Assembly (NCBI GenBank): GCA_030621225.1
Contig: JAUXIB010000003.1
Location: forward strand, 1-41,873
Direction of reading: 5' to 3'
Source: a candidate division FCPU426 bacterium
GTDB lineage: Bacteria; Oederibacteriota; JAUXIB01
DNA length: 41,873 bases
Shown: piece by piece, positions 236-41,822 of the stretch
Layout: the number at the start of each line of letters is the position of its first letter
How positions within the stretch are numbered: the first letter of the stretch is position 1
Made by a program: the position numbers and the translations under genes
Notes under the pieces: model-generated
What the model was told of the DNA's origin: nothing
The model's database searches: none
The model's input: only the letters and a program-made list of their open reading frames with translations

Positions 236-1305
236 ATGAAAAATATATGCGTCTCGCGTTAGACTTGGCCGAAAAGGGCCGCGGCAAGACCGGCCCTAAC
301 CCACTGGTCGGCGCGGTAGTGGTGCGCCGGGGACGTATCGTTGGCAGTGGTTATCACCGCGGTTCGGGTAAGCCCCATGCGGAGGCGATAGCCTTGAAGC
401 GCGCGGGGAGCGGCGCGAAAGACGCTACGCTCTATGTCAGCCTGGAGCCCTGTGTGCACGTAGGTAGGACTCCGCCCTGTGTGCCGCAAATAATTTCCGC
501 TGGGGTGCGACGGGTAGTGGTTGCTATGAGTGATCCCGATCGGCGGGTGAACGGCCGTGGTTTGCGCTCGTTGCGCCGGCTCGGCATCAAGCTGAGTCAG
601 GGGATCCTGGAACCAGAGGCGCGGCATCAAAACAGGGTGTACCTGAAGAACAAGCGGCATGGCTTGCCTTATGTCATTCTGAAATGGGCGATGAGTTTGG
701 ACGGCAAGATCGCCACACGGCGCGGCGATTCAAAATGGATCAGTTCGGGTGTTTCACGGCGTTTGGTTAAAAAAATGCGCGGTGAGGCGGACGGGGTGTT
801 GGTCGGCAGCAGGACGGCGCAGCTGGATGATCCTGGCTTGCGTGGAGGAAGCGGCGATGGCGCGGCCGTGGTACTCGACCCGGAGTTGACGGTGCGGGGA
901 AAAATGAAGTTTGCTCGGGGCGGTCGTTCGCTGGTGGTGACGGCGCAGGGCGCGGGGAGCGCAACTCGCCGCAGGGAGTTGGCGCGGGCGGGTGTAGAGC
1001 TTATTGAATTGCCGCTGAGGCGTGGCCGGTTACCGTTGCGGCAGGCGTTGGCAAAATTATTCGATTCAGGGATGTATTCTTTGCTTGTGGAAGGCGGTGG
1101 TGAAACGAACGCCGCTTTTCTTGAGGCAGGTTTGGCGGACGAGCTAGCTGTTTTTGTCGCGCCTAAGCTGATCGGCGGCCGGGAAGCCATTACGCCGTTT
1201 GCGGGAGTTGGCATAGCCAAGCTTACCGGCGCGTTGCCGGTAAAGGGGTGGACGGTGGAGAAGTTGGGCCCGGATTTTTTGATTAAAGGGATTATCAAAA
1301 GTTAG
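232..1305 (+). CDS. ribD: Bifunctional diaminohydroxyphosphoribosylaminopyrimidine deaminase/reductase RibD
   Basis: PNPLVGAVVV, HAE and LEPC..GRTPPC zinc-deaminase motifs; KWAMSLDGKIA and LLVEGGG reductase motifs; GTG start. Confidence 0.97.
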   Translation: MDEKYMRLALDLAEKGRGKTGPNPLVGAVVVRRGRIVGSGYHRGSGKPHAEAIALKRAGSGAKDATLYVSLEPCVHVGRTPPCVPQIISAGVRRVVVAMSDPDRRVNGRGLRSLRRLGIKLSQGILEPEARHQNRVYLKNKRHGLPYVILKWAMSLDGKIATRRGDSKWISSGVSRRLVKKMRGEADGVLVGSRTAQLDDPGLRGGSGDGAAVVLDPELTVRGKMKFARGGRSLVVTAQGAGSATRRRELARAGVELIELPLRRGRLPLRQALAKLFDSGMYSLLVEGGGETNAAFLEAGLADELAVFVAPKLIGGREAITPFAGVGIAKLTGALPVKGWTVEKLGPDFLIKGIIKS

Positions 1306-1374
1306 TCGCGTGTCATGTGTCACGTGTCTTGCGTCGTTTGAGGCGACACGTGACAAGAGACCCGGGACGCGCGA
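1303..1374. repeat. Heptamer tandem array with inverted arms (GTGTCAC / GTGACAC type)
   Basis: gtgtcat gtgtcac gtgtctt gcgtcgt ... gcgacac gtgacaa gagaccc gggacgc. The core resembles those at 2695-2757 and 27456-27530. Confidence 0.8.
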
Positions 1375-1375
1375 T

Positions 1376-1422
1376 AGTAGTGGCGTCCCTCCGCGGGCGC
1401 CACCAGCCGAAGGCTGGTTAAC
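1376..1422 (+). repeat. 47-nt double-hairpin element, copy 1 (upstream of ribE)
   Basis: AGTAGTGGCGTCCCTCCGCGGGCGCCACCAGCCGAAGGCTGGTTAAC; 45/47 identical to 4093-4139. Confidence 0.9.
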
Positions 1423-1434
1423 GGCGACGAAAAA

Positions 1435-2076
1435 ATGTTTACAGGCATAATAAAATACCAGGGAAAATTGGAGCGCATTGAGCGCCGCGGTCCGGGTGGT
1501 CGCTTAGCGCTGAGTTGCCCTGAGCTTGACGGCAAGCTGGCGCATGGCGGTAGCCTGGCGGTGGATGGTGTGTGCCTGACAATGGTGGAAGCAGCCGGGG
1601 GTAGGTTTGTCTTTGATCTGTCAGGGGAGACTCTGGAATGTGCTACGTTCAAAGATCTGCCGGTGGGCCGGCTGCTTAACTTGGAATTGCCGCTGGCTGC
1701 CGGGGACCCTATCGGCGGGCACCTGGTTAGCGGTCATGTTGACGGGATTGCCGGGATCAAAGGGATCAAGACCGCACAGGATGGAACGGTGTTGTCCCTG
1801 GACTATATTAAGCCGCTGAAAGCGTATATATATGAGAAGTGTTCGGTGGCTGTTAACGGAGTTAGCTTGACGGTAGCATCTGTGAGCGGAGATATGTTTG
1901 AGATCGCTCTGATACCTGAGACGCTACGGGCTACTACTTTATATCTTTTGCGTGTTGGAGATATGGTTAACTTGGAAGCGGACACGCTGGTCAAGGCGAA
2001 ACTCCATGCTGAAAGTGAGCAGCAGGGGGATGGGTTGACGGTGGAGAAGTTAAGGCAGGCGGGATTCAGTCAGTAG
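1435..2076 (+). CDS. ribE: Riboflavin synthase (alpha subunit)
   Basis: N-terminal MFTGII, SLAVDGVCLT, GGHLVSGHVDG, SVAVNGVSLT, VNLEAD. Confidence 0.97.
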   Translation: MFTGIIKYQGKLERIERRGPGGRLALSCPELDGKLAHGGSLAVDGVCLTMVEAAGGRFVFDLSGETLECATFKDLPVGRLLNLELPLAAGDPIGGHLVSGHVDGIAGIKGIKTAQDGTVLSLDYIKPLKAYIYEKCSVAVNGVSLTVASVSGDMFEIALIPETLRATTLYLLRVGDMVNLEADTLVKAKLHAESEQQGDGLTVEKLRQAGFSQ

Positions 2077-2231
2077 CTCGTAGCTCGTAGTTCGTAGCTC
2101 GTTGTCTACTGATTACTGACTACTGACCATGACGTTTGACCTTTGACGTTGGACGGAAACAACGCTATACGTAATGCGCAATACGATACGTGGTCAGCAA
2201 ACAGGAGACGACCAACTAGATACGAGATACA
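2074..2231. repeat. Composite heptamer array (TAGCTCG / TACTGAC / TTTGACG blocks, then GATACG-type arm)
   Basis: Blocks are directly visible. 2074-2153 is an inverted counterpart of 16738-16838. Confidence 0.85.
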
Positions 2232-2248
2232 ACGTAAGGGGGGATACC

Positions 2249-2695
2249 ATGGAAATCGATGGTGTTGATCGGATCAAGCGTGGCGAGCTTGAGAAGGGGA
2301 AAAAGAAGGAAAAAACCGCTCCGACCGGCGAGGTTTTTAAGTCCGTGATGGGAGAGGCGGAAGGCCAGGAAAAACGCCGGGAGCTTGATCAGATCATGAA
2401 GGACGTGGAAGAGCAGGGCCAGAGCCTGCTCAAAAATTTCAAGCCGGAGGAAGTGAAGAAATATCGCGAGACTGTCGGTAGGTTTCTGTCTGTGGCGTTA
2501 GCTGAGAGCTACAAAGTATCGGAAAGCCATTCCATAGCGCGGGACGGCCGGTACACGGCACACTTGAACCTGGAGAAGATCGAGAGCGGTCTGGAGGAAC
2601 TGACCCAGACGGTAGTAAAGGGGCAGGTGGAACCATTGAAGTTGTTGGCTAAGATCGATGAGATCAAGGGGATGTTGTTCGATATGTATAAATAG
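2249..2695 (+). CDS. YaaR/DUF327-family protein
   Basis: Size and pattern (LDQIMKDVEEQGQSL, VKKYRETVGRFL, IDEIKGMLFDMY) resemble DUF327. ATG 2249 follows a G-rich SD; the longer ORF start at 2174 lies in repeat sequence. Confidence 0.75.
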   Translation: MEIDGVDRIKRGELEKGKKKEKTAPTGEVFKSVMGEAEGQEKRRELDQIMKDVEEQGQSLLKNFKPEEVKKYRETVGRFLSVALAESYKVSESHSIARDGRYTAHLNLEKIESGLEELTQTVVKGQVEPLKLLAKIDEIKGMLFDMYK

Positions 2696-2757
2696 GTCTC
2701 GCGTCTCGCGTCGTTTGTCCGCGGCGACGCGTGACACGTGACTTGTGACACGCGACA
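2695..2757. repeat. Heptamer hairpin array (GCGTCTC / GTGACAC)
   Basis: ggtctc gcgtctc gcgtcgt ... gcgacgc gtgacac gtgactt gtgacac gcgaca. Confidence 0.8.
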
Positions 2758-2770
2758 AAGAGGAGAATTA

Positions 2771-3973
2771 ATGAAGACCGCTAAAATAGAAGACGCGCTA
2801 AAGGATTTAAAAAAAGGCAAGATGGTTGTGATCGTGGATGATGCGGATCGCGAGAACGAAGGTGATCTGGCGATGGCCGCTGATAAGGTGACGCCGCAGG
2901 CGATCAATTTTATGGCTAAGTACGGCCGTGGACTGATCTGCGTTGCCCTGACCTCAAAACGGCTTGACGATCTGGGATTGCCGCAGATGGTGAATGACAA
3001 TACCTCTAATTACGGCACTGCCTTTACCGTCAGTGTGGACGCACGCTCCGGTACTACCACGGGCATATCAGCGGCTGATCGCGCCGGTACCATTAGCCAG
3101 TTGTTGGATCCCAAGCTCGGTGCGGATGATTTCATGCAGCCCGGGCATACTTTCCCGCTACGCGCAAGTGATGGCGGTGTTCTGGTGCGTGCTGGTCAGA
3201 CTGAGGCGGTGGTGGATATGGCGCGACTGGCGGGCCGTTATCCGGCGGGGGTCATCTGCGAGATCATGGATGAAGACGGGACGATGGCGCGTATGCCTAG
3301 ATTGCTCGCCTTTGCCAAGCGGCACCGTCTGAAAGTAGTTGCCATTGCCGATCTGATAAGTTATCGCCGTCGTACCGAGGTGCTGGTGCGCGAGACCGCG
3401 GTGGCTCGGATCGATAACGAATTTGGCGAGTGGCGACTGCATCTTTTCAAGTCTCTGACTGACAAGCGGGTGCATCTGGCTCTGGTCAAGGGAGAACTCA
3501 GTCCGGTGCGGGCGTCGCTGGTGCGGGTTCATTCAGAATGTCTTACCGGTGATGTTCTGGGGAGTATGCGCTGTGATTGTGGTGAGCAGTTAAACCGGGC
3601 GATGCGGATGATCTCTGAGGCGGGGAGCGGGGTACTATTGTATCTGCGCCAGGAAGGGCGCGGCATCGGTTTGGAGGAGAAGATAAAGGCCTACTGTTTG
3701 CAGGACAGCGGCTTGGATACCGTGGAGGCGAACCAGTTATTGGGGTATCCGGCAGACCTCAGGGAGTACGGTACGGGCGCGCAGATCTTGCGCTTGCTGG
3801 GGGTGAAGAATATTAATCTGCTGACCAATAATCCGCGCAAGATAGTGGGCCTGAAGGGGCATGGGCTCAAGGTTGTAAAGCGGGTGGCCTTGGAGGTAGG
3901 GGTGACTAAGCAGAGTCAGCGGTATCTGAAGACGAAGCGGGATAAACTGGGACATCTTCTCAAGGTAAAATGA
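2771..3973 (+). CDS. ribBA: Bifunctional DHBP synthase / GTP cyclohydrolase II
   Basis: DDADRENEGDL, GHTFPL, RAGQTEA, VICEIMDEDG, RVHSECLTGD, RCDCGEQL, QEGRGIGL, TNNPRK. AGGAG SD before ATG 2771. Confidence 0.97.
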   Translation: MKTAKIEDALKDLKKGKMVVIVDDADRENEGDLAMAADKVTPQAINFMAKYGRGLICVALTSKRLDDLGLPQMVNDNTSNYGTAFTVSVDARSGTTTGISAADRAGTISQLLDPKLGADDFMQPGHTFPLRASDGGVLVRAGQTEAVVDMARLAGRYPAGVICEIMDEDGTMARMPRLLAFAKRHRLKVVAIADLISYRRRTEVLVRETAVARIDNEFGEWRLHLFKSLTDKRVHLALVKGELSPVRASLVRVHSECLTGDVLGSMRCDCGEQLNRAMRMISEAGSGVLLYLRQEGRGIGLEEKIKAYCLQDSGLDTVEANQLLGYPADLREYGTGAQILRLLGVKNINLLTNNPRKIVGLKGHGLKVVKRVALEVGVTKQSQRYLKTKRDKLGHLLKVK

Positions 3974-4092
3974 GGCGCGTATCTTGTAGCTTCCGCCGTC
4001 GTTAACACTGCCATAAATATTACTTTTATGGTTAGGAGCGTCAACTATGGCGGACAAGCGTAGCTAGTAGTTCGTTGGCATGACCGCGAGCC

Positions 4093-4139
4093 AGTAGTGG
4101 CGTCCCTCTGTGGGCGCCACCAGCCGAAGGCTGGTTAAC
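4093..4139 (+). repeat. 47-nt double-hairpin element, copy 2 (upstream of ribH)
   Basis: Matches 1376-1422; both mismatches lie in the first hairpin loop. Confidence 0.9.
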
Positions 4140-4169
4140 CAGACGTGAACCAAAAAAAGGAGGTATGCA

Positions 4170-4640
4170 GTGATGAAGACCTACGAAGGAAAACTTAACG
4201 CCGAGGGGTTGAAGGTAGCCCTGGTAGTCAGTCGTTTCAATGATTTCATTACCGAGAAATTATTGGCAGGAGCGGTGGACACTTTGCAGAGGCATGGCGT
4301 CAAAGAGAGCGGGCTGAGTGTTTACCGGGTGCCCGGTTCATTTGAATTGCCCGTGGTAGCCGCGAAGGTGGCGCAGGCCGGCGGCGTTGACGCGGTTATC
4401 TGCCTGGGCGCGGTCATCCGCGGCGGCACGCCGCATTTTGACTATGTGGCCGGTGAGTCGGCCAAGGGTGTGGCTAAAGTAGCGATGGAAAGTAAGGTGC
4501 CGGTGATCTATGGAGTAGTTACCACGGATACTATCGAGCAGGCGGTGGAGCGCGCGGGGACGAAGATGGGTAATCGTGGCGCGGACGCGGCGATGTCCGC
4601 TATTGAAATGGCACAGCTTTATCGATCAATGGGAAAGTGA
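4170..4640 (+). CDS. ribH: 6,7-dimethyl-8-ribityllumazine synthase
   Basis: [48 protein letters not shown]; start is GTG 4170 or ATG 4173. Confidence 0.97.
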
Positions 4641-4715
4641 TGCGTCTATCGGCTATAGTCTATCGGGGTATAGGCGCGTAACGATCAACGATAGTCGATA
4701 AACGATTAACGCAAC
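4641..4715. repeat. Heptamer array with inverted arms (GTCTATC / ACGATAR)
   Basis: gtctatc ggctata gtctatc ... acgatca acgatag tcgataa acgatta. Confidence 0.7.
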
Positions 4716-4718
4716 AAA

Positions 4719-5114
4719 ATGACCAAAACAGCACGTCGTTTAGAAAGAGAAGCCGCGCTTAAGGAGCTTTACCGCTTGGAGTATGACTCCGAGAGTAAGG
4801 TTCGTCTGTGTGGGGAATACGCTTGCCGGCTTATTGACGGCGTGCGGGAGCAGCGGCAAGAGCTGGATAAGCTGATCAAGAAACGGCTTAAAAAGTCCTG
4901 GCCGTTTAAAAGGATAGCCTTGATGGATGTGCTGATCATGCGCATCGCTATTTACGAGATACTTGAGGTAGAGGAAGTTGACGCGGCCATCTCTATTAAT
5001 GAGGCCTTGGAACTGGTGCGCGAATTTTCCGAGGAAAAGTCGGTGGCTTTTGTCAACGGAGTGCTGGATGGGGTGGGTAAGGAAGCGGCGGGCGGTGGTC
5101 CGCTTCGTAGCTAG
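4719..5114 (+). CDS. nusB: Transcription antitermination factor NusB
   Basis: RRLEREAALKELY, W...RIALMDVLIMRIAIYE, ISINEALELVREF, FVNGVLD; canonical position after ribH. Confidence 0.93.
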   Translation: MTKTARRLEREAALKELYRLEYDSESKVRLCGEYACRLIDGVREQRQELDKLIKKRLKKSWPFKRIALMDVLIMRIAIYEILEVEEVDAAISINEALELVREFSEEKSVAFVNGVLDGVGKEAAGGGPLRS

Positions 5115-5153
5115 TAGCTCGGAGTTCGTAGCTCGTTGGCTGTTAGTAAAAAA

Positions 5154-7151: not shown

Positions 7152-7214
7152 TGAAGGCGGAGAAACTCGACTTGACGATTATTGGTGAAAGTGAGTTTAA
7201 GAAGATGGTAGAAT

Positions 7215-7290
7215 GACCGGAAACAGAATACCGGATACAGGACACTGGGGTAGATGCCAACCCGTATTCTGTGTGCCGTGTACCGTGTCC
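7215..7290. repeat. Heptamer inverted-arm array (GGATACA / GTGTACC)
   Basis: ggaaaca gaatacc ggataca ggacact ... gtattct gtgtgcc gtgtacc gtgtccc. Confidence 0.7.
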
Positions 7291-8299: not shown

Positions 8300-8462
8300 C
8301 GGAGTGCGGGAGTAACGGTGTAACGGAGTAACAGGAACCCTAAGACTCAGGCCCCGAGATAGTTATTAGTCGTTGGTCGTTCGTCGTTAGTATTTGGTTG
8401 AAGTTAAGAAGTAAAAAGCAGTGAGATTGAGATACGAGCTGCGAGCTACGAGTTGCGAGTTC
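8300..8462. repeat. Mixed 7/8-mer array (GGAGTAAC, TRGTCGT, GAGCTRC)
   Basis: ggagtaac ggtgtaac ggagtaac; tagtcgt tggtcgt tcgtcgt; gagctgc gagctac gagttgc. Confidence 0.75.
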
Positions 8463-9544: not shown

Positions 9545-9550
9545 TAAAGG

Positions 9551-9603
9551 AATTCTGAATTCTGAGTTATGAATTATGAATTCTCGGGACTAGGAACTCG
9601 GGG
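9551..9603. repeat. AATTCTG/AATTATG/AGTTATG heptamer array
   Basis: gaattct gaattct gagttat gaattat gaattct. The same family occurs at 14783, 16687 and 36572, and inverted at 30748. Confidence 0.8.
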
Positions 9604-9674
9604 ATCGTCGTTCATGGGATGTAGAATGCCACGCGAGTACCCGGCATCGAGCTCCAAGCCACGTTTATCTGTTG

Positions 9675-9692
9675 CCAGCCGAAGGCTGGTTA
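9675..9692 (+). repeat. Partial third copy of double-hairpin element (CCAGCC-GAA-GGCTGG)
   Basis: CCAGCCGAAGGCTGGTTA is identical to 1403-1420. Confidence 0.7.
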
Positions 9693-10788: not shown

Positions 10789-12009
10789 GTGGAGTTGGAC
10801 TTTAGAAAAAGCATAATCTGTGTAATCTGTGTAATCTGTGGATTGACTGGTAATGCCAAGACCGTTAAGGATGAACTAAAGGAGCAGACGGCGTCCAAAT
10901 TGCCGGTCAAGCTGAGGATCAGCGAACTGCAGGTCAATCCCCAGACCACCTTCATCCTGCCCGACGGCAGCATTCGCATGAATGTGGAAGTGCTTAATCG
11001 CGGCGGTATATCTTTGGCGGCTACATCAAAATACAACTTTGTCAATAGTGACATAGACTATCGCATTAAATACTCGTATGTTTTCGGCAGAAACAACATC
11101 GGCCTGTCTGTTTTTGACAGTATAGATTTTGAGAAGGTTTTTTCCGATAGCCGTTTTATTGCCCGCAAGCGCGGCGGTGAAGGGGGATATTGGCGGCGTC
11201 TGGGCAGGTTTTACAGCATTGGCATGACGCTTTCAAGTGAGCAGCATTTCATGGTGCCGTTGGTGGAAGAGACTGTAGACTATGATAAGTCTACGCTCAA
11301 TAGCGGCACGACGCGTTTGGCTTATGATTCTCGCGACAATGGCAGCGACCCGCGCGCGGGTACTATGTACTGGGTGAGTTTCAAGCAGGCTACTGAGGAA
11401 CTGGACGGAGATTACCGTTACAACAAGGCCGAAATGGGACTGCGTAAATATTTCGGCTTGCGTTTTTTCGCCGCCGAAGATGCCGAGCCGAAAGAGAAGA
11501 AAAAGCGGAAAAGTAAGAAGAAAAAAAAGAATAAAGTGGCACCGGGAAAGAACCTGATCATTGCGCTGGAAGGTCTTTACGGAGCGGTTCCTTACAAGCG
11601 GCGGATCAGCGCCGAGCGTGAAGCGGTGCCTTATCTGGATCATTATCGTCTGGGCGGCTTTCGCAACTTGCGTGGTTACGCGGTAGACGAATTCATGGGG
11701 GAGGATGTTGTCAGTCAGCGGGTGGAGGTTCGTCTCTCCTACAAGGCCACGGAACCCGTGGGCAAGATTTGGGGGCTTTACTTTGACCGGATAGAGCTTG
11801 TTGGCAGCTATGACGTCGGGGTTATCGGCGAAAACGTCTATTGCCGTCGGGGTTACCTGCGGCAGGTCGCCCGCCAGGGGGTTGCCTATGGCTTTCGTTT
11901 CAAGCTTAATGTTAAACGGAAGATTAGTATGATACTATATTTGATGGAGGGGCGAGCTTTGCGGCAGAACAGGGACGGGGTGTTTTATCTTTCATATACT
12001 ATTTATTAG
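10789..12009 (+). CDS. Omp85-superfamily (Bac_surface_Ag-like) beta-barrel protein without obvious POTRA domains
   Basis: AYDSRDNGSDPRAG, YRLGGFRNLRGY (L6 VRGY-like motif), alternating aromatic C-terminal strand. GTG 10789 follows GAGGAGG; signal-peptide-like N-terminus. Confidence 0.65.
   Translation: MELDFRKSIICVICVICGLTGNAKTVKDELKEQTASKLPVKLRISELQVNPQTTFILPDGSIRMNVEVLNRGGISLAATSKYNFVNSDIDYRIKYSYVFGRNNIGLSVFDSIDFEKVFSDSRFIARKRGGEGGYWRRLGRFYSIGMTLSSEQHFMVPLVEETVDYDKSTLNSGTTRLAYDSRDNGSDPRAGTMYWVSFKQATEELDGDYRYNKAEMGLRKYFGLRFFAAEDAEPKEKKKRKSKKKKKNKVAPGKNLIIALEGLYGAVPYKRRISAEREAVPYLDHYRLGGFRNLRGYAVDEFMGEDVVSQRVEVRLSYKATEPVGKIWGLYFDRIELVGSYDVGVIGENVYCRRGYLRQVARQGVAYGFRFKLNVKRKISMILYLMEGRALRQNRDGVFYLSYTIY
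10814..10841 (+). repeat. 3 x 9-nt TAATCTGTG repeat inside CDS (ICVICVICG)
   Basis: taatctgtg taatctgtg taatctgtg g. Confidence 0.9.
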
Positions 12010-12083
12010 TCGCTAGTCTCTTGTCTCTAGTGCGTTTTGCCTTGATCCACCAGCGACTAGCGACCGGCGACCAGCGACAACGA
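12007..12083. repeat. Heptamer hairpin (TAGTCGC / YAGCGAC arms)
   Basis: tagtcgc tagtctc ttgtctc tagtgcg ... cagcgac tagcgac cggcgac cagcgac. Confidence 0.8.
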
Positions 12084-14778: not shown

Positions 14779-14876
14779 TATGAGAATTCTGAATTATGAG
14801 TTATGAATTATGAAGAAGGTACGCGGTACACAGGAAACAGGATACAGGGGGCTGGATAGGGAATTCTGAGTTATAA
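14779..14876. repeat. Composite array AATTATG(n) - GGTACAC/AGGATAC - GGGGGCTGGATAGGGAATTC
   Basis: The same ordered blocks occur at 16672-16715, 23876-23935 and 36572-36618, and inverted at 30721-30770. Confidence 0.8.
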
Positions 14877-14888
14877 GGGTATGGATTT

Positions 14889-16671: not shown

Positions 16672-16838
16672 GGGGGCTGGATAGGGAATTCTGAATTATG
16701 AATTCTGAGTTATGAAAACGGTGGGCAGGGGTCGGTAGTCCAAATGTCAAAGGTCTGAACGTCGAAGGTCAAACGTCGAACGTTGTGGTCAGTAGTCAGT
16801 AGACAGCGAGCTACGAACTACGCGCTACGAACTGCGAA
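16672..16838. repeat. Long composite heptamer array
   Basis: AATTCTG block, CAAAGGT/CAAACGT block, GTCAGTA block, CGAGCTA/CGAACTA block. The 3' part is an inverse of 2074-2153. Confidence 0.85.
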
Positions 16839-21151: not shown

Positions 21152-21241
21152 TGTGTTGAGCTGAAAATGACCGCTTTAGGGTGATAGAATAAACTAATAA
21201 AAGATAAGTGGGTCGCGGGTTGAAGGTTAAAAGTTCCAAGT
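21152..21241 (+). repeat. 90-bp direct repeat, left copy
   Basis: TGTGTTGAGCTGAAAATGACCGCTTTAGGG...GGTTAAAAGTTCCAAGT; 89/90 identical to 22405-22494. Confidence 0.95.
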
Positions 21242-21381
21242 GAAAACGGAGGCACGGTGGTCAGGTGGTCATACCTTCGGTGGTAAAGTTGAAAGTATTT
21301 AAATGAGCCCTGGTCTTGTGCGAGAACGCAGTAGGGCTGATCGTTTTTCTCGTCGATAGCCATTCTAGAGGCAAGAAGAGG

Positions 21382-21771
21382 TTAACTATTCAGGAGTCCT
21401 TTTACGTGTTCCGCGAACTTTAAAATATCACGCAGAACAGAAGATCTGTCGAGAGATTCTTTTGTGATTTCTGAGGTATCATAACGGAGTTGAACGGCAA
21501 AATCAGTCAAATCCTTCAACGGTTGGAACCTATCGGGAACCTGCTCGCCATTTTCATCAAGTAAGGCGAAAAGTTCTCCGAGATCATGGGTCTTGGGATA
21601 CTCAATGCCGGATATGCTCAACCAGGCCTTAGCTGTTTTTTCAACCGCTTGCTGGGCATGAAACCCGAAAATTGCGTTGGTAAAAGTATCAACGTCATCC
21701 ATGCCCTTGAGAGCTTTCAAGTCATTGGCGGCTATGTCAAACATCGCCTGAGCGTGCTTAATGTCTTTCAT
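21382..21771 (-). CDS. HEPN domain protein (putative toxin)
   Basis: FHAQQAVEKTAKA, KTHDL and LRY motifs. ATG 21771 overlaps the MNT stop (TATGAAAGACATTAA), implying translational coupling. Confidence 0.88.
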   Translation of the reverse strand: MKDIKHAQAMFDIAANDLKALKGMDDVDTFTNAIFGFHAQQAVEKTAKAWLSISGIEYPKTHDLGELFALLDENGEQVPDRFQPLKDLTDFAVQLRYDTSEITKESLDRSSVLRDILKFAEHVKGLLNS

Positions 21772-22093
21772 ATAGCACTTTCCCTTTACGCAGACAACGA
21801 GCGATAATATGATTAACGGAACAACGCCATTTTTCAACTTCACTCGTGCTATAGACTAGGATATCTTTGGGGATACGGTAACTGGATAATGCTTTTCGGA
21901 TGCGACTCATTTCTTCGCGTCGACTGTTCTTCGGCCCAAACGTTTTTCGCTCTACGACGAGGAAGTCTATGTCCGAATCGACATTCGCGTCTCCGGAAGC
22001 GTGAGAACCGAAGAGGATGACCTGTTCCGGAGTAACCTCATCTACGATAGCTTTTACCATTTCATCAAGGACTTGATTTGTAACTTTAAGCAT
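21758..22093 (-). CDS. Minimal nucleotidyltransferase (MNT; putative antitoxin)
   Basis: ILFGSHASG..DSDIDFLVV (GS-x10-DxD), 111 aa, ends GKVLYE. Confidence 0.92.
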   Translation of the reverse strand: MLKVTNQVLDEMVKAIVDEVTPEQVILFGSHASGDANVDSDIDFLVVERKTFGPKNSRREEMSRIRKALSSYRIPKDILVYSTSEVEKWRCSVNHIIARCLRKGKVLYERH

Positions 22094-22404
22094 ATCTTAA
22101 TTATACGTCACGCAAGTTTGCGGTTCAATGTTTTATTCTGATACTTTAGAGTAATAGGGATCCTGCTTGAGCTGATCCAGTGATGTTCTTTTCATGGTTA
22201 AGCGAACATCATTGACTGCGATGTTTATTACCGGGGGCGGAAAATGGTTCCCACATATTTAGTCAGTGACTCAGTAGTGCCCCCGGTAACACGGGGCATG
22301 CAAGCTAAACGCTTGCTCTAATAGATACCGTTAATAACCAAGATGAGAACTATTCATTGCTCATCCTTAGTATATTTGCTACCTTAAGACTGACACATAG
22401 ACTT

Positions 22405-22494
22405 TGTGTTGAGCTGAAAATGACTGCTTTAGGGTGATAGAATAAACTAATAAAAGATAAGTGGGTCGCGGGTTGAAGGTTAAAAGTTCCAAGT
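22405..22494 (+). repeat. 90-bp direct repeat, right copy
   Basis: One C/T difference from 21152-21241. Confidence 0.95.
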
Positions 22495-22527
22495 TTGTCG
22501 TTGTAGGAGCGTGACAAGGATTCGAAA

Positions 22528-23799: not shown

Positions 23800-23819
23800 T
23801 ATTTACAGAAATTTTGTTT

Positions 23820-23970
23820 CAGGTTGCAGGTTGAAGGTTCAAAGTTTCAAGTAGGGGCGGTTGTGGGAATTGTGCAGGATACCGGAAACAGGATACGGGG
23901 GGCTGGATGAGGAATTCAGAATTAAAAATTCAAAATTTGCGGCTAGATACTAGCTTTACGCTATACGCAC
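23820..23970. repeat. Composite heptamer array (GGTTGMA, GGATAC, AATTCA, TACGC blocks)
   Basis: ggttgca ggttgaa ggttcaa agtttca (same type as the 3' end of the 90-bp DR); ggatacc ggaaaca ggatacg ggggctggat. Confidence 0.75.
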
Positions 23971-25284: not shown

Positions 25285-25415
25285 GGTTAGTACGAACTGC
25301 TAATCTTGGGAAGCAACGAGCTACTAGCTACGAACTTCGAGCTACGAAGCAGACCACTTTATAACCCTTAAACCTGCTCAACCTTGTAACTCCTGATCTT
25401 AGCGAAGAATGAGGG
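25285..25415. repeat. 7-mer (CGAGCTA) and 9-mer-like (AACCYTGYW) arrays between convergent genes
   Basis: cgagcta ctagcta cgaactt cgagcta cgaag; aacccttaa acctgctca accttgtaa. Confidence 0.6.
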
Positions 25416-27458: not shown

Positions 27459-27530
27459 GTCGTGCGTCGTGTGTCCCGTGTCGCGAGTCGCATATGACAC
27501 GAGACGCGTGACCCGAGACCCGTGACAGGA
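27456..27530. repeat. Heptamer hairpin array
   Basis: gagtcgt gcgtcgt gtgtccc gtgtcgc gagtcgc ... tgacac gagacgc gtgaccc gagaccc gtgaca. Confidence 0.8.
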
Positions 27531-27532
27531 CA

Positions 27533-28573
27533 ATGAAGAGATCACTGATAAAAGGAATAATGAAACACCGCCTGGGACGAGTAGGCTTCACCGTCCTGCT
27601 TGTGTTATACACTGCGGTACTGTTCGCCGGATTCCTTTCCCCCTATCATCCGGCCGAGCACCATCGCCGCGCGGCGTATCATCCGCCAACGCCGATTAAA
27701 TTCAGCCTGGCGCAGGGATTTTACGTTAATGGATATGAACTTACTGATGTAGCTTTCAAGCGGTATAAGTTGCTCCAGCAACAGCGGTACAAGGTAAAAT
27801 TTTTAGCCAAAGGGTTTTCGTATCGTATTTTTGGGGTCATTCCCGCGGAGCGTCACTTTATCCAGACGGCGCAGGGGGGGCATCTCTTTCTGTTCGGTAG
27901 CGATCATTTTGGCCGGGATGTTTTTGCGCGCATACTATACGGCGGCCGGGTTTCTCTGAGCATCGGACTGATCGGTGTGGCTATTTCTTTTTCGCTGGGC
28001 TTGTTTGTCGGCGGCATATCCGGGTATTTCGGCGGTCGGGTGGATGATATTTTGATGCGGCTGTGTGAGGTGATCATGAGTGTGCCCGGCTTTTATCTGC
28101 TGCTGGCTTTGCGTGCCGTCATCCCGTTGCAGCTCTCTTCCACGCAAACTTACCTGGCGCTGGTCGGGTTGCTTTCCTTTATCGGCTGGCCGGGGTTGGC
28201 GCGGGTGATCCGTGGACAGGTTTTGTCTATTCGTGAACGGGACTTTGTCGCGGCGGCGAAGGCGATCGGCGCCTCGCCCGTGCGGATCATCGTTAGGCAT
28301 ATAATTCCTAATACTTTTTCTTATACGATCGTTGCCGCTACTCTTTCCATTCCTGGTTATATCCTGGGAGAGTCCGGGCTTTCCTTTCTGGGGCTGGGTA
28401 TCCAGGAACCGGACGCCAGTTGGGGTAATATGCTTTCCGCGGCGATGAGTATCCACGCGCTCTCCTCTTTTTTCTGGATACTTGTGCCGGGATTGTTCAT
28501 CTTCATTGCGATTATGAGTTTTAATCTGCTGGGGGACGCGATAAGGGATGTTACGGATCCGAGAATTAACTAG
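27533..28573 (+). CDS. Peptide ABC transporter permease (OppC/DppC-like)
   Basis: FGSDHFGRDVFARILYGGRVSL, DFVAAAKAIGAS..RHIIPN, ESGLSFLGLG. Confidence 0.95.
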   Translation: MKRSLIKGIMKHRLGRVGFTVLLVLYTAVLFAGFLSPYHPAEHHRRAAYHPPTPIKFSLAQGFYVNGYELTDVAFKRYKLLQQQRYKVKFLAKGFSYRIFGVIPAERHFIQTAQGGHLFLFGSDHFGRDVFARILYGGRVSLSIGLIGVAISFSLGLFVGGISGYFGGRVDDILMRLCEVIMSVPGFYLLLALRAVIPLQLSSTQTYLALVGLLSFIGWPGLARVIRGQVLSIRERDFVAAAKAIGASPVRIIVRHIIPNTFSYTIVAATLSIPGYILGESGLSFLGLGIQEPDASWGNMLSAAMSIHALSSFFWILVPGLFIFIAIMSFNLLGDAIRDVTDPRIN

Positions 28574-28665
28574 TGGACAGGGGCCAGGGGTCGGTGGTCA
28601 GTGGGCAAGAATATACCAGCGACAGGTGACACGGGATGCGTGATGAGTATTGAGTGAAAGGAAAT

Positions 28666-29688: not shown

Positions 29689-29748
29689 TCGAGTCGAATG
29701 TCCAATGTCAAACGTCTGAACGTCCGATGTCTCTTCCGGACTCGATAC

Positions 29749-29917
29749 TAGTCGTTAGTATTTGGTATCTGGTATTTGGTTGGTCCTCCGGACACTCCAA
29801 CATTAAACAGAATATGGTCGGCCTTCGGACACTCCAATATACAAAAAAATAGTTGGCCGTCCCGGCACTCCGATATTAAACAGAATTTGGTCGCCGACTA
29901 AACACTAAATACCAACG
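29749..29917. repeat. Inverted-arm element with three 34-39 nt internal tandem units
   Basis: Arms are related to 36626-36700 and 38137-38250. Units at 29781, 29815 and 29854 share TGGYC..CGG(A)CACTCC. Confidence 0.8.
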
Positions 29918-29998
29918 AGCTACGAACTACGAACTACTAGCTACGAGTAAGATGGCATACCACATATAGTCTTTCCTCAAGTCTTATAATAATACCGC

Positions 29999-30028: not shown

Positions 30029-30088
30029 ACGATTATTCAATATCCTGTGCGACGATAGATAATAGACGAATAACGAAAGACGAAAAGA

Positions 30089-30573: not shown

Positions 30574-30708
30574 AGCCACAGAGGTCACAGAGTTCACAGA
30601 GAAACGACTTTTCCTGGATAACACCAACAAAACACTCCATCTTTTTTGTTGTCTCCGTGGTACGCACAGAAAAAAATCTTTTGTCTTTCCTCTGTGATCT
30701 CTGTGGCT
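30574..30708. repeat. 9-mer (CACAGAGRT) inverted-repeat element with no gene inside
   Basis: AGCCACAGAGGTCACAGAG (30574-30592) versus CTCTGTGATCTCTGTGGCT (30690-30708); 18/19 complementary. Confidence 0.85.
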
Positions 30709-36562: not shown

Positions 36563-36625
36563 AGAATTGTGAGTTATGAATTATGAGTTATGAATAAGGC
36601 GGTACACAGGATACGGGATATGAGT

Positions 36626-36700
36626 TAGTCGTTAGTCGTTGGTATTTAGTATTTAGTCGTCAACCAAATACCAATGACTAAATACTAACGACCAAAACAG
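36626..36700. repeat. Inverted-arm element, empty form
   Basis: TAGTCGTTAGTCGTTGGTATTTAGTATTTAGTCGTCAACCAAA-ta-CCAATGACTAAATACTAACGACCAAAACAG. Confidence 0.85.
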
Positions 36701-36756
36701 CAAATAGGAAGTGGCAAACCAGATACTAGATACGAGATACCAGATACGCTTGTCAC

Positions 36757-36806: not shown

Positions 36807-36809
36807 GGA

Positions 36810-36963
36810 TGTCGTCGTGGTGAAAAGGACGTTAGCCGTTACGGTGCGCGTTGGTGTTTGAAAAGAAAGAACGTCGTGTCGTCGTGGTGAAAAGGACGTT
36901 AGCCGTTACGGTGCGCGTTGGTGTTTGAAAAGAAAGAACATCGTGTCGTCGTGGTGAAAAAGG
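36810..36963 (+). repeat. 67-bp tandem repeat, 2.3 copies
   Basis: Units start at 36810, 36877 and 36944. Units 1 and 2 differ at one position. Confidence 0.92.
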
Positions 36964-38113: not shown

Positions 38114-38136
38114 GCAGGGGTTGGGGGTCAGTAAGC

Positions 38137-38250
38137 TAGTCGTTGGTCGTTGGTATTTAGTATTTAGTTGGCAACCAAACGCCCCCTACGGGGACTAACT
38201 GATATTAAATAGGATAGCGGCCAATGACCAAATACTGACGACCAAAACAG
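38137..38250. repeat. Inverted-arm element with 41-nt central insert
   Basis: Arms differ from 36626-36700 at 3 and 2 positions. The centre carries CCCC-ctac-GGGG and GATATTAAATAGGAT. Confidence 0.85.
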
Positions 38251-38374
38251 GATGCAAGGAACGGCGCTTGACAAACTACGCAATACGCAATACGACATAC
38301 GATATCCGGTAGACGGGGGGGCTTAACTTGGTAATGCACGCTATACGCTATACGCGGTACGTGGTACGAGAACT

Positions 38375-38824: not shown

Positions 38825-41094
38825 ATAAAAAAGGAACGTTGGTTATCGTAGAGTCTTCTGCCAAGGCCCGGACGATTGGTAAGTACCTTGGCCCAGGGTA
38901 TCACGTGGTCGCTTGCATGGGTCATGTCATCGATCTGCCCAAGAGCGAGCTAGGTGTTGACGTGGAGAACGGTTTTCGGGCACGGTATATAACGGTGCGT
39001 GGCAAGGGGAAGATCCTGCAGGAGCTTAAACGTCTTGCCAAACGTTTGTCTGGTGTTTTGATCGCGGCTGATCCGGACCGGGAGGGGGAAGCGATCTCCT
39101 GGCATCTTAGAGAGGCCCTGGTGAAAAACGGGGTAGAGACTATCCAGCGGATCAGTTTTAACGAGATCACCAAAAAAGCAGTACTTGGTGCGCTTGACCA
39201 GAAAAAAGAAATTAATCTGGATATGGTCTACGCACAGCAGGCGCGGCGCATCCTTGATCGACTGGTCGGGTATATGATCAGCCCTATTCTTTGGCAGAAC
39301 GTAAGAAGGGGGCTTTCCGCGGGGCGGGTGCAGTCGGTGGCCCTGATGATAGTCTGTGATCGCGAGGAGGCGATCAAGGAGTTTAAGCCTCTGGAGTACT
39401 GGACCATAGACGCCGAGGTGAAGGGTAGTCGCGGCGCTGGGTTCATTGTGAATTTGTTCCAGTACGCGGGGGAGAAGGTGGAAATCAATTCTGCCGCAGA
39501 GGCCAAGAAGATCAGCGACAAATTGCGCGAATCGTCTTTTCTTGTGGAAGCTCTGGACAAGACGCGTAAAAGAGCGATGCCGCCGGCGCCGCTGACGACC
39601 AGCAAGCTGCAGCAGCTGGCGTCCGGCAAATTACGTTTTTCGGTAAAGAAGACGATGTTCATCGCTCAGCAACTATACGAGGGCATGGATATTGGCGAGG
39701 AAGTACCGGCGGGCCTGATCACTTATTTGCGTACCGATTCACGTCGAGTGTCCGATGAGGCGAAGCAGGACGCGGCGCGTTACATAGAGGAGAATTTTTC
39801 CGCGGACTACTTGCAGACGAAGCCGATCGTTTACAAGGCTAAAGCCGGGGTGCAGGATGCGCATGAAGCGATAAGGCCGACTTCTGTCTATCGTCAACCG
39901 GAAGCGATGCAGCAGTATCTCTCGCGCGACCAATTTGAGCTTTACAAGTTGATCTGGAATGTATTTCTTGCCTCCCAGATGAAGCCGGCGGAATACGATA
40001 ATATAAGTGTGACCATACGTGCCGGGGAAGGGCGGCTTCGGGCCAATGGGCGCAAGCTGGTCTTCGATGGGTTCAAGCGGGTGCTTAAGGAGAAGGAAAG
40101 CAGCAGCCAAAAGATACCTCGTCTGGCGCTGGAACAGGAAGTGGAGTTGTTGGATTTGAAAAACGAGCAGCACTTCACTCAGCCGCCGCCGCGTTTCACC
40201 GAGGCGTTGCTGGTCAAGACCTTGGAAGAAAACGGCATTGGCAGGCCCAGCACTTATTCGCCGATCATCGGTACCATCCAGGGACGGGGGTACGTCGAGC
40301 GTAACCAGGACGGGCGTTTGCAGCCGACGGAATTGGGACAGTTGGTGATAACACTGCTCAAACAGAATTTCCCGGGGATAATGAACGTCAGTTTTACCGC
40401 CGAAATGGAACGGGATCTGGATAGTGTGGAGGAGGGCGGGCGGAAATGGCTTGAGCTCCTGGAAACTTTCTATGGGAAATTCGAAAAGGAGGTGCAGGAA
40501 GCCGGAGTGAACATGAAGGAGCAGAGCCGAGAACTCAGCGGCGAGACGGATGAGGTATGTCCTAACTGCGGCAAACAGTTGGCGGTAAAATGGAGCCGCC
40601 TGGGAAAGTTCCTGGCGTGTCCCGGTTATCCTGAATGCCAATTTACCAAGTCGTTCGGTGAAGAGGGAGAGGTGGCGAGCGAATTTTGGCAAGGTCGTAA
40701 ATGTGATAAATGCGGCGGCAGGTTGAAATTGAAGGTCGGGCGGTTTGGGAAGTTTTTGGCCTGCGAGAAATACCCGGATTGTAAATTCACCGCGTCTCTG
40801 CCCATAGATGTGAAGTGTCCGCAGCAGGGATGCGGCGGCGATGTGGTGCAGTGCCGTTCTAAACGCGGCAGGCATTTTTTCGGCTGCAGCCGCTATCCCG
40901 AGTGTGAGTTTATGAGTTGGTCCCGGCCGGTGCAGATTGAGTGTACCGCTTGTAAAGGGCCGATCATGGTGAAAAAGTCCTCGCGCAAGAAGGGTCAATA
41001 TCTGGCCTGTCCGAATAAGGAGTGTGGGCATGAGGTGGGGGTTGAGGTGGAACAGCCGGAAACGACGGAGGAAGTTGAGGAAAACGCTGATTGA
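38806..41094 (+). CDS. topA: DNA topoisomerase I (type IA)
   Basis: LVIVESSAKA, ADPDREGEAI, SAGRVQS, ITYLRTDS (catalytic Tyr), GIGRPSTY, several C-terminal Cys4 zinc ribbons. Confidence 0.98.
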   Translation: MGKQKLDKKGTLVIVESSAKARTIGKYLGPGYHVVACMGHVIDLPKSELGVDVENGFRARYITVRGKGKILQELKRLAKRLSGVLIAADPDREGEAISWHLREALVKNGVETIQRISFNEITKKAVLGALDQKKEINLDMVYAQQARRILDRLVGYMISPILWQNVRRGLSAGRVQSVALMIVCDREEAIKEFKPLEYWTIDAEVKGSRGAGFIVNLFQYAGEKVEINSAAEAKKISDKLRESSFLVEALDKTRKRAMPPAPLTTSKLQQLASGKLRFSVKKTMFIAQQLYEGMDIGEEVPAGLITYLRTDSRRVSDEAKQDAARYIEENFSADYLQTKPIVYKAKAGVQDAHEAIRPTSVYRQPEAMQQYLSRDQFELYKLIWNVFLASQMKPAEYDNISVTIRAGEGRLRANGRKLVFDGFKRVLKEKESSSQKIPRLALEQEVELLDLKNEQHFTQPPPRFTEALLVKTLEENGIGRPSTYSPIIGTIQGRGYVERNQDGRLQPTELGQLVITLLKQNFPGIMNVSFTAEMERDLDSVEEGGRKWLELLETFYGKFEKEVQEAGVNMKEQSRELSGETDEVCPNCGKQLAVKWSRLGKFLACPGYPECQFTKSFGEEGEVASEFWQGRKCDKCGGRLKLKVGRFGKFLACEKYPDCKFTASLPIDVKCPQQGCGGDVVQCRSKRGRHFFGCSRYPECEFMSWSRPVQIECTACKGPIMVKKSSRKKGQYLACPNKECGHEVGVEVEQPETTEEVEENAD

Positions 41095-41200
41095 GTTTTT
41101 ACGCTGATTACGCGGATTATACGCTGCTTGCCGCAGCTAGTCGCTGGTGCCTGGTGGAGGCGTTACTAGCAACCAGCAACCAGCAACGAGCAACAACTTT
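41095..41200. repeat. 9-mer (ACGCKGATT) plus 7-mer (CAGCAAC) arrays
   Basis: acgctgatt acgcggatt; tagtcgc tggtgcc tggtgga ... tagcaac cagcaac cagcaac gagcaac. Confidence 0.75.
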
Positions 41201-41214
41201 GTAGGAGGTGTATT

Positions 41215-41757
41215 ATGCAATTTAAGGGAACAACGATATTGGCGCTGCGCCGTAAGGGAGAGGCGGTCATCGGCGGCGACGGTCAGGTGACCTTGGGCGA
41301 TATGATCGTCAAGGGACAGGCGAGAAAAATACGCAAGTTGTATAAGGGCAAGATATTAGTCGGTTTTGCGGGGAGTGCCGCTGATGCGATGACGCTTTTT
41401 GACCGTTTTGAGGCCAAACTGGAGGAGTATAAGGGTCAGTTGGCGCGTTCGGCCATAGAATTGGCCAAGGATTGGCGTATGGACCGGGCGTTACGCCGCT
41501 TGGAAGCGATGTTGGTGGCGATCGACGAGAAAAGTCTGTTGCTGATATCCGGTAGTGGCGATGTAATAGAACCGGAGCACGAAGTCGTTGGCATTGGCTC
41601 CGGTGGCGGATACGCGATGGCGGCCGGGCGAGCGCTTTTGGCTAATAGTAAACTAGCGGGGGAGGATATCGTGCGTAGGTCGTTAGAAGTCGCCGCGGGC
41701 TTGTGTGTATATACAAACGATCAGATCACGGTGGAAACTTTAAAACAGAAAAAGTAG
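41215..41757 (+). CDS. hslV: ATP-dependent protease subunit HslV
   Basis: TTILA N-terminal nucleophile, [26 protein letters not shown]. Confidence 0.97.
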
Positions 41758-41822
41758 TTGCTGGTGAAAGGATGCGCGAGCGACTAGCGACTAGCGACAA
41801 TATTTATTTAGGAGCTAATGAA

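Follow-up and report, generated by a model that had tools for sequence, protein, structure and literature searches.

In the 41,873-nucleotide (nt) contig JAUXIB010000003.1 of a candidate division FCPU426 bacterium, the whole of which constitutes the window analyzed here (contig C110 of assembly G000, which comprises 2.6 Mb in 266 contigs with 52% G+C), the spacers between genes are populated by short tandem arrays of 7-nt units. These arrays build small repeat modules that have a characteristic anatomy and strongly non-random statistics, exist in filled versions that enclose a gene, have undergone module duplication and insertion into hairpin loops, and are completely turned over between related genomes. 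We give about even weight to the view that they represent a bloom, specific to this lineage, of small repeat modules that carry no gene and are copied at the DNA level; on sequence evidence, the best-supported account would make the modules of this bloom relatives of the arms of four-helix-bundle gene cassettes and of those intervening sequences (IVS) of rRNA that carry an open reading frame (ORF). Three kinds of module offer the best explanation of the arrays. The first is palindromic, with an arm of G/T-rich form (GT-form), a loop of ~10-80 nt and an arm of the same family in the A/C-rich form (AC-form); such modules are best explained as gene-less counterparts of the arms of TIGR02436/PF05635 genes, and are built like the ORF-bearing IVS of 23S rRNA. 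The second consists of solo sense arrays of the unit GARTTMT placed right after stop codons, where they put a stop into each of the three frames, and the third of elements armed with 8/9-mers that resemble MITEs (transposable elements of the miniature inverted-repeat kind), whose full-length versions carry a GxxExxY gene of the PD-(D/E)XK type.

Bacterial genomes contain an unexplained intergenic excess of 7-base tandem repeats, which has been an open question since about 2007, while we know of no function for the PF05635 four-helix-bundle proteins, which occur in rRNA IVS and are related to Avd of diversity-generating retroelements. Both come together in the present genome, an extreme case: its arrays fall into many unit families with a fixed five-base core, have a preferred size of 4-5 units and keep an inward polarity throughout, and the same arms surround the small genes. 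The class of intergenic heptamer repeats is itself already known, and unexplained; what is new here is an extreme case, involving multiple families, that is directly linked to two small-gene families.

Arrays were detected with Tandem Repeats Finder (TRF), degenerate units below its threshold being judged by eye, and genes were called with a simple ORF model made for this analysis. TRF returns 34 rows of period 7 and 7 of period 14 in the window, where order-3 Markov shuffles (n=100) average 0.74 period-7 rows and never exceed 3. Throughout the genome, 1306 rows of period 7 and 304 of period 14 compare with 55 and 11 in the shuffled genome, and periods 9 (449 versus 45) and 8 (212 versus 62) are also enriched. 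Enrichment over shuffled sequence, which had been named in advance as a point on which the repeat system could be refuted, is thus pronounced at both scales. Merging of the rows yields 1340 arrays, 82% of whose bases lie in the intergenic fraction, although the latter accounts for only 17.5% of the genome; arrays occupy 7% of intergenic DNA, and at least one is present in ~41% of spacers, in every orientation class. The density in the window, 81 rows per 100 kb, compares with 7.3 (median 0) in 159 unrelated SecA neighborhoods (2.3 Mb), and an Rfam search of the window identified no known RNA family. A preliminary description of this DNA had reported arrays at about 25 gene junctions, and a TRF array of period 7 or 14 is indeed found at, or a few bases from, most of the 24 coordinates that it cited (arrays at 1305, 2073, 2696, 5105, 7210, 9550, 14784, 16686, 23816, 28572, 30061, 36564, 36624, 38139, 38277 and 41779, with one of period 8 at 8309). 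For 4641, 12007, 27456, 29690 and 41135 the TRF array lies farther along the spacer (4680, 12049, 27495, 29758 and 41168, respectively); degenerate units are seen at the first four of these positions themselves, and the signal at 41135 is weak. The sites at 25285 and 26455 are degenerate and visible by eye only.

The 1297 consensus units collapse to 196 canonical heptamers, with at least nine abundant families, and share period 7 and inward polarity, in agreement with the earlier remark that the unit sequence varies while the period recurs. Dominant units are TAGCTCG, GAATTAT/GAATTCT, GTATCTA and GTATTTG; G-rich units of the quadruplex type are not seen, the top units (TAGCTCG, GAATTAT, GTATCTA, GTATTTG) being devoid of G runs. 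Families keep five unit positions nearly constant and leave the other two free, GTNGCTN, GTATYTN, GARTTMT and GTCNCGN being among the patterns. Array length has its mode at 30-32 nt (4-5 units), drops steeply beyond 35 nt and does not decay from the detection limit; this mode is common to hairpin-forming and solo families, whereas slippage would be expected to produce monotonic decay.

The placement of arrays with respect to genes is equally regular. G/T-rich arrays lie a median of 13 nt past the stop codon, and for A/C-rich arrays the median distance is 79 nt to the stop and 49 nt to the start that follows (quartile 14), the distances to starts being approximate because of the simple ORF model. 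Adjacent arrays follow the order (GT,AC) in 172 cases and (AC,GT) in 33. The preliminary description had assigned the G/T arm to the stop side and the A/C arm to the start side, which these figures bear out, and the strand bias whose absence it had listed as a point of refutation is present. As the array order of an inverted repeat is identical on both strands, the rule is better expressed as the GT-form reading inward from the nearest gene; this inward reading, from either gene end, holds family by family, and in four families the nearest gene is on the 5' side of the GT-form in most arrays.

TAG was also said to be frequently the first triplet of the unit. A stop triplet is found in the unit of 63% of arrays lying no more than 30 nt past a stop, versus 32% of random intergenic heptamers, part of this excess arising from the manner in which ORF ends are defined, and the nusB ORF itself ends at a TAG within an array. 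A stop triplet in a heptamer unit places stops in all three frames. GARTTMT, the largest family (~216 arrays), is never paired; its arrays are sense-oriented in 85% of cases and follow stop codons closely (median distance 14 nt, quartile 1 nt), the copies in the window being located at 9550, 14784, 16686 and 36564. Folding of two of these copies indicated that 14782-14816 is unstructured (z -0.08) and that 9548-9590 forms a weak internal hairpin (-11.7 kcal/mol, z -2.8). At 14830-14880, 16672-16690 and 23905-23935 of the window, ACAGGAW and GARTTMT arrays are connected by a linker without periodicity, GGGGCTGGATRRGGAATT, whose strict pattern has 5 occurrences genome-wide; the recurrence of the linker suggests that at least some arrays travel as parts of larger composite repeats.

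Pairing into inverted arms is a property of three families, in which same-family pairs are arranged left to right 82 times (GTNGCTN 25, GTATYTN 36, GTCNCGN 21), with gaps mostly of 10-80 nt, versus only 3 times right to left (2, 0 and 1, respectively), and ~20-35% of the arrays in these families make same-family hairpins. Single modules of the window fold well, with z of -4.3 for 1300-1375 (-38 kcal/mol), -3.6 for 12006-12082, -5.8 for 36620-36700 and -3.5 for 38136-38270. Three modules of the composite type GTCGTTR-GTATTTR reveal more of their history: the composite arms of those at 36624 and 38139 are near-identical, a 39-nt loop insert being what sets the two apart, and the third copy, at 29744, has three loop inserts. 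Alignment of the three points to the copying of whole modules and to insertion into loops. A mini-element of 37-41 nt, consisting of a small GC hairpin and ACTCCAAYATTAAACAGAATA, is present once or thrice in heptamer hairpin loops (29777-29893 and 38175-38215), and the genome has 24 occurrences of its core, GGACACTCCAAYAT. In the proposed mechanism, modules would be copied and replaced as whole units at the DNA level, with existing hairpin loops as well as spacers as destinations; through transcription inside operons, the palindromic ones would form intercistronic stems, which RNase III could cut by analogy with rRNA IVS.

Profile searches detect neither a TIGR02436 nor a TIGR04256 gene in the window, as the preliminary description had stated; in the rest of the genome, filled versions of the arrays are present for both small-gene families, and the link that was to be checked is thereby established. 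The TIGR02436 family is represented by five full-length and three disrupted genes, located among heptamer arrays at 8 loci outside the window, five of which score 105-121 bits (cut-off 24). The encoded four-helix-bundle protein matches PF05635 with 116.7 bits and PDB entry 2gsc with E = 3e-19; each of the solved homologs, 2gsc and 2rld, comprises five chains. At most of these loci arrays flank the gene on either side, and at five the two sides are inverted. The arm families of C264, C232, C237 and C247/C258 (GTTGCTC, GTGGTCA, GTCACGT and GTATCTA) are also found without a gene, and gene-less arrays of the first three are present in the window. Among relatives, ~7 of 27 four-helix-bundle genes lie between heptamer arrays, and literature searches retrieved no report that connects TIGR02436 or GxxExxY genes with repeat arrays flanking them in spacers. 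Two of the four-helix-bundle genes are themselves hosts to other repeats: the gene on C60 (3287-3732) is interrupted by a ~130-nt insert, a small repeated element, and another is split over the contig ends C247 16415-16555 and C258 11388-11570 by a ccaccgactttagtcggtgg-type element with 16 copies. A conserved motif resembling a promoter, CCRTTTTTGTCR followed ~17 nt on by TAGGAT/TATAAT, has 34 sites in the genome and is found upstream of four-helix-bundle genes and of genes for REP-associated tyrosine transposases (RAYT; REP, repetitive extragenic palindrome) alike, for example at C118:869, C142:8383, C146:18303, C151:23623 and C237:4970.

The 8/9-mer class is connected with the second gene family. 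Three full-length GxxExxY genes in the genome match TIGR04256 with 139-154 bits (cut-off 35), are identified as GxxExxY / PDDEXK_3 by family search, and are flanked by arrays of CACAGAGNN and CTCTGTGNN or by 8-mers of the CCACGACGACACGACG type, motifs that are the most frequent 14-mers of the genome; sequence search revealed no solved relative of the protein. Gene-less pairs of 9-mer arms are arranged left to right 58 times versus 2 right to left, and enclose a conserved, MITE-like interior of ~200 nt (terminal inverted repeats, many copies), the arms and conserved interior being common to gene-bearing and gene-less versions. In the window this class accounts for 1-231, 10814-10840, 30577-30708 and 36810-36960. 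The first has units of the AATCTGTGG type, a sequence that occurs 220 times in the genome; the left subterminal sequence of the element at 30577-30708 equals that upstream of the GxxExxY gene on C126, and 36810-36960, whose motif CGTCGTGTCGTCGTGGTGA has seventy genome copies, matches the right-end sequence downstream of the GxxExxY gene on C235. A tblastn match at C221 represents a remnant of a GxxExxY gene.

Turnover was assessed by comparison with a single genome of the same family, G001, whose SecA is 80% identical, other relatives being at ~58% and a metagenome scan for finer-scale relatives yielding nothing nearer than 56% SecA identity. Contig C42 of G001 is syntenic with positions 235-5797 of the window, and the same junctions bear arrays of other families, which indicates fast turnover: GTATTGR hairpins occupy 4 of the 6 rib junctions, ribD|ribE has one arm only, and nusB|ligA has no array. 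Upstream of secA, the families of G001 also differ from those of the window, and two G001 contigs carry two different ones; G001:C439 (1-146) and G001:C392 (reverse, last 160 nt) both reach the secA 5' end, with GTCGTTN and GTCACGG upstream, respectively, which points to two strains in one bin or to a polymorphic junction. A comparison of filled and empty alleles at orthologous junctions, proposed earlier as a check, yielded no such pair for a gene. An orthologous four-helix-bundle gene does lie upstream of the same lipoprotein gene on G000:C60 and G001:C219, with arms that differ in family and layout. In twenty relatives from the phylum, 0-4 arrays are found per 20 kb around secA, versus 34 in the 42-kb window, and several of these array-poor relatives have 7-9 four-helix-bundle matches, compared with 9 in this genome. 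Insertion into structured RNA is exemplified by an FMN riboswitch upstream of ribD in G001 (C42 5834-6103, minus strand, 101.5 bits), whose terminal loop, 10 nt in the consensus, harbors a 138-nt insert with inverted 9-mer arrays (CGCGGAGNA / TTCCGCGNN); the 231 nt that precede ribD at the beginning of the window contig yielded no FMN riboswitch.

A number of observations weigh against a bloom of modules copied at the DNA level. No transposase, recombinase or target-site duplication was tied to the heptamer modules, and although RAYT transposases are present, their number in relatives bears no relation to array density. The arms that changed around a stationary four-helix-bundle gene would fit evolution in situ at least as well as transposition, and the distances to starts are approximate, as stated above. 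Specific complementarity between neighboring arrays is modest. Strong duplexes are formed by 23% of adjacent pairs versus 13% of permuted partners (p = 4e-4), a strict consensus test finds an inverted partner for 76 of 1271 arrays versus ~56 in controls, and stems are broken by periodic mismatches at the two free positions of the unit. The arrangement into inverted arms proposed in the preliminary description therefore stands for a subset, given the 82 versus 3 same-family pairs and their good folds, and fails as a general rule, since GARTTMT never pairs and the excess of duplexes is small. Similarly, of its suggestion of a REP-like structuring of mRNA, the folding of single modules (z -3.5 to -5.8) is retained, but spacers with arrays do not, as a class, exceed array-free ones in structure (mean z -1.6 versus -2.0), and a general RNA-structure signal was rejected. 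The sense strand folds better than the antisense strand by 5 kcal/mol in all spacer classes alike, which is uninformative with regard to arrays.

A reading to which we assign a clear minority share takes the arrays as predicted binding sites, on RNA or single-stranded DNA, for a pentameric four-helix-bundle protein or another multimeric nucleic-acid binder, with one unit per subunit. Each paralog would have its own five-base core, the arrays would constitute a post-transcriptional regulon, and the gene would be autoregulated via its own arms; as one subunit would read one unit, an array of 4-5 units would be one binding site. Such an arrangement would explain what mobility alone does not, namely the five fixed and two free positions, the sharp 4-5-unit mode in both hairpin and solo families, and the free positions left unpaired in stems, which suggest that the cores are conserved rather than pairing. 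The five chains of 2gsc and 2rld, the homopentamer cited in PMC4990558, the different arm family at each four-helix-bundle gene, and the 85% sense orientation of GARTTMT are in line with it. However, at least nine abundant families face five intact four-helix-bundle genes, no such gene with arms matching GARTTMT is present in this 90%-complete assembly, array-poor relatives have equal numbers of the genes, arms differ at the orthologous gene, and arrays are equally present in divergent spacers. The two views, mobility and binding, are compatible and not mutually exclusive, and it is tentatively conceivable that heptamer arrays and pentameric four-helix-bundle proteins make up one recognition system, with gene-less arrays as cellular or parasitic targets; if true, this would account for an excess that has long been known, that of 7-base repeats in bacterial spacers.

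Slippage, RAYT mobilization and cassette footprints are all less likely than either a bloom of copied modules or a set of binding sites. That the arrays are ordinary long simple-sequence repeats (SSR), produced in place by polymerase slippage as neutral spacer filler, is improbable. Slippage is thought to favor 7-nt units, and could accommodate the period-14 higher-order structure of ~300 arrays, the variation in unit number among copies of one module family and the change of arms around a stationary gene; passages in PMC4679880 (on Mrazek 2007) and PMC4692102 also describe heptamers as the commonest long SSR class in many bacteria. It does not account for a 30-32 nt mode with a sharp upper fall-off, few families with fixed cores, an inward polarity of 172:33, composite arms copied in mirror order, the duplication of whole modules, the association with two gene families, or relatives of similar composition without arrays. 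The preliminary description had offered footprints or empty docking sites as one option; in strict form, these would be left after excision of four-helix-bundle or GxxExxY cassettes, an idea to which we attach low probability. Filled versions with the same arm families, broken four-helix-bundle genes and the GxxExxY remnant on C221 do speak for it, but ~1,340 arrays confront ~8 genes, array-poor relatives have just as many genes, gene-less 9-mer elements have a conserved interior of their own rather than a scar, the largest family, GARTTMT, is solo and lacks a partner arm, and no filled/empty gene pair was found at one orthologous junction; the orthologous locus at which the gene stayed while the arms changed also speaks against docking sites for cassettes. 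Very unlikely, finally, is the view of palindromic modules as REPIN-like elements moved by the RAYT enzymes of the genome. Seven Y1-transposase genes are present, one above the NCBIfam RAYT cut-off; that on C118 is immediately preceded by a GTCNCGN heptamer hairpin, palindromes or tandem 8/12-mers border others, and the insertion of elements into hairpin loops is reminiscent of IS200/IS605-type enzymes, which act on single-stranded DNA hairpins. With an array in ~41% of spacers, however, one array beside a RAYT gene is expected by chance, and the gene with clear cognate repeats, on C248, is tied to a different, classical REP. In addition, the 30 loci considered (28 from relatives) are without flanking arrays of 4-5 heptamers, apart from one at a contig end of G001 and that of C118, and similar gene counts are found in array-poor genomes. 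RAYT was thus rejected as the driver, as the genes of relatives are not flanked by heptamers and their counts are independent of array density. The classical REP-like element, gtggcgtccctc..gggcgccaccagccgaaggctggtta, adjoins arrays at 1376-1420, 4092-4135 and 9668-9690 of the window, and flanks the RAYT gene on C248, which scores above the NCBIfam cut-off, with three copies upstream and an inverted one downstream. A single reverse transcriptase gene (RVT_1) exists in the genome, and nothing links it to the arrays.

Modules of this kind have several parallels. The short tandemly repeated repetitive (STRR) heptanucleotide repeats of heterocystous cyanobacteria were reportedly described by Mazel et al. 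in 1990, a study that PMC4692102 cites as ref. 39; several of their families are likewise dispersed in intergenic DNA, with a different lineage and different units, and to our knowledge neither arm polarity nor a gene link has been described for them. REPs and REPINs are also short palindromic intergenic elements with hundreds of copies, and RAYT genes and classical REPs exist here, but the REPs of one genome have one conserved sequence, while the arrays share a period and an architecture over 196 canonical units. The terminal inverted repeats and ~200-nt interior of the 8/9-mer-armed elements (58 gene-less and 3 gene-bearing copies) recall MITEs, with the difference that the termini are tandem 9-mers and that the gene encodes a small GxxExxY protein of PD-(D/E)XK fold and not a known transposase. 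The intergenic heptamers of Xanthomonas (GGGAATC) and Nostoc (GGGGAYT) described by Rehm et al. 2015 (PMC4692102) resemble the present arrays in their period of 7, in being about 90% intergenic with many convergent (inverted) pairs, in lying nearer to the ORF on the 5' side of the array whatever its orientation (GGGAATC in Xanthomonas), and in varying in length and sequence among close relatives. They consist of one G-rich, quadruplex-prone unit. In the present genome, at least nine families, none of them G-rich, follow a 5+2 pattern with a sharp 4-5-unit mode and reach a far greater density (~41% of spacers); one solo family is strand-specific, and two small-gene families are linked to the arrays. 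In the 23S rRNA IVS of Coxiella and Leptospira, a PF05635/TIGR02436 ORF is looped between inverted repeats that contain tandem heptamers; that of Coxiella burnetii, an S23p ORF in a stem of GACAGAT heptamers, is cut by RNase III, and its heptamer number differs between strains (Warrier et al. 2016, PMC4990558). The window modules possess such a stem of inverted heptamer repeats, and on C264, C232, C237 and C60 the arms surround genes, but the modules lie between protein-coding genes and mostly lack an ORF, none of those in the window carrying a gene. The TAACTGA direct repeats of marine Beggiatoaceae, cyanobacteria and Bacteroidetes (MacGregor 2015, PMC4679880) and GARTTMT are both strand-specific solo heptamers in 2-6 copies that provide stops in three frames and in some cases overlap the end of the upstream ORF; TAACTGA is positioned just upstream of start codons, whereas GARTTMT lies just after stop codons, and Beggiatoaceae have a single unit in place of many families. 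For annotation, it is relevant that arrays supply stop codons and replace spacers completely between related genomes, and we would guess that they probably contribute to breaks in assemblies.

The window carries ribD, ribE, ribBA, ribH, nusB, ligA and secA, with nearly all genes on the plus strand; its repeat features are listed in the table, together with the arms of the TIGR02436 loci found elsewhere in the genome.

Table. Repeat features of the window and arms of the TIGR02436 loci (energies in kcal/mol; SD, Shine-Dalgarno sequence)
Position	Strand	Feature	Basis and remarks
1..231	+	ribD leader of AATCTGTGG-type units	contig begins inside; equals right end of MITE-like element, G000:C56 7381-7713
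1303..1375	.	palindromic GTCNCGN module, ribD/ribE spacer	left arm begins at ribD stop; TRF 1305-1328; -38 kcal/mol, z -4.3
2073..2155	+	GTAGCTC x4.3, CTACTGA x3.1 and TGACGTT x3.7 in a row past ribE stop	TRF; no clear local partner; z -1.15
2693..2757	.	palindromic GTCNCGN module filling spacer ahead of ribBA	TRF 2696-2712, 2726-2757; -29.8 kcal/mol, z -2.0
4641..4711	.	degenerate palindromic CTATCGG / AACGATA module, ribH/nusB	TRF 4680-4711; z -2.5
5105..5136	+	solo GTAGCTC-type array over nusB 3' end	TRF; in-frame TAG 5112-5114 inside; missing at G001 junction
7210..7290	.	weak period-14 array after ligA, partly complementary stretch downstream	TRF 7210-7240; sequence
8309..8459	+	mosaic spacer: 8-mer GGAGTAAC x3, GTCGTTN x2.9, AC-form CGAGCTG	TRF 8309-8332, 8369-8388, 8429-8459
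9550..9584	+	solo sense GARTTMT x5, begins 5 nt past stop codon	TRF; family statistics
10814..10840	+	TAATCTGTG x3, 9-mer array of right-arm type	TRF, 100% match; family counts
12007..12078	.	palindromic GTCNCTN / NAGNGAC module filling spacer ahead of secA	TRF 12049-12078; -28.3 kcal/mol, z -3.6
14784..14848	+	solo GARTTMT x4.4 from 5 nt past secA stop, then ACAGGAA array	TRF; z -0.08
16686..16838	+	GARTTMT, then GTCAGTA and AC-form CGAACTA ending at next SD	TRF 16686-16716, 16788-16806, 16807-16838
23816..23839	+	GTTGCAG x3.4 soon past stop codon	TRF
25310..25352	+	degenerate AC-form CGAGCTA units, convergent spacer	by eye only, below TRF threshold
27459..27527	.	GTCNCGN-type left arm, GAGACNC/GTGACNC right arm	TRF 27495-27527; z -1.2, weakly complementary
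28572..28604	+	GTGGTCA-family array over stop codon	TRF; family also flanks four-helix-bundle gene on G000:C232
29695..29947	.	composite, left part: GAATGTC-type units and GTCGTTA-GTATTTG left arm	TRF 29758-29780
29695..29947	.	composite, rest: 37-nt insert x3, right arm, AC-form ACGAGCT	TRF 29777-29893, 29915-29947; alignment with two other copies
30061..30088	+	degenerate 7/8-mer array AATAGACG ending at start codon	TRF
30577..30708	.	gene-less 9-mer-armed element: CACAGAGNN x2.8 left, CTCTGTGNN right	TRF 30577-30601; sequence
36564..36595	+	solo GARTTMT x4.6 beginning at stop codon	TRF
36624..36696	.	palindromic GTCGTTR-GTATTTR module, near-empty loop ('empty' state)	TRF; -26.8 kcal/mol, z -5.8; alignment
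36718..36747	+	AC-form ACCAGAT x4.3	TRF
36810..36960	+	67-nt unit x2.3 with CGTCGTGTCGTCGTGGTGA	TRF, 98% match
38139..38250	.	second GTCGTTR-GTATTTR module, 39-nt loop insert ('filled' state)	-42.7 kcal/mol, z -3.5; arms near-identical to 36624-36696
38277..38355	+	AC-form TACGCAA x2.6 and ACGCTAT x2.6 ahead of next gene	TRF
41168..41194	+	AC-form AGCAACC x3.9 ending just ahead of SD	TRF; family of the arms of four-helix-bundle gene on G000:C264
41779..41798	+	AC-form AGCGACT x2.9 ahead of last gene	TRF
C264		TIGR02436 locus, arms GTTGCTC x4 / GAGCAAC x4	
C232		TIGR02436 locus, arms GTGGTCR x17 / CTGACCM	
C237		TIGR02436 locus, arms GTCACGY / GTGACAY	
C60		TIGR02436 locus, arms GGTGAAT x9 / ATTCACT	
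C247/C258		TIGR02436 locus, arms of GTATCTA type	

The phenomenon of heptamer arrays is sporadic across phyla, and locally dense arrays, often in complementary pairs, were also encountered in some unrelated lineages, for example in a metagenome-assembled genome of Desulfobacterales, in Pyrinomonadaceae and in Acidobacteriota (genomes and metagenome contigs L040, L061, L032, L201, L210 and L249). A further repeat of the window is a direct one of ~90 nt, tgttgagctgaaaatgac.gctttagggtgatagaataaactaataaaagataagtgggtcgcgggttgaaggttaaaagttccaagt, whose copies at 21160-21260 and 22400-22495 bracket a minus-strand gene (21382-21843) and a long spacer.

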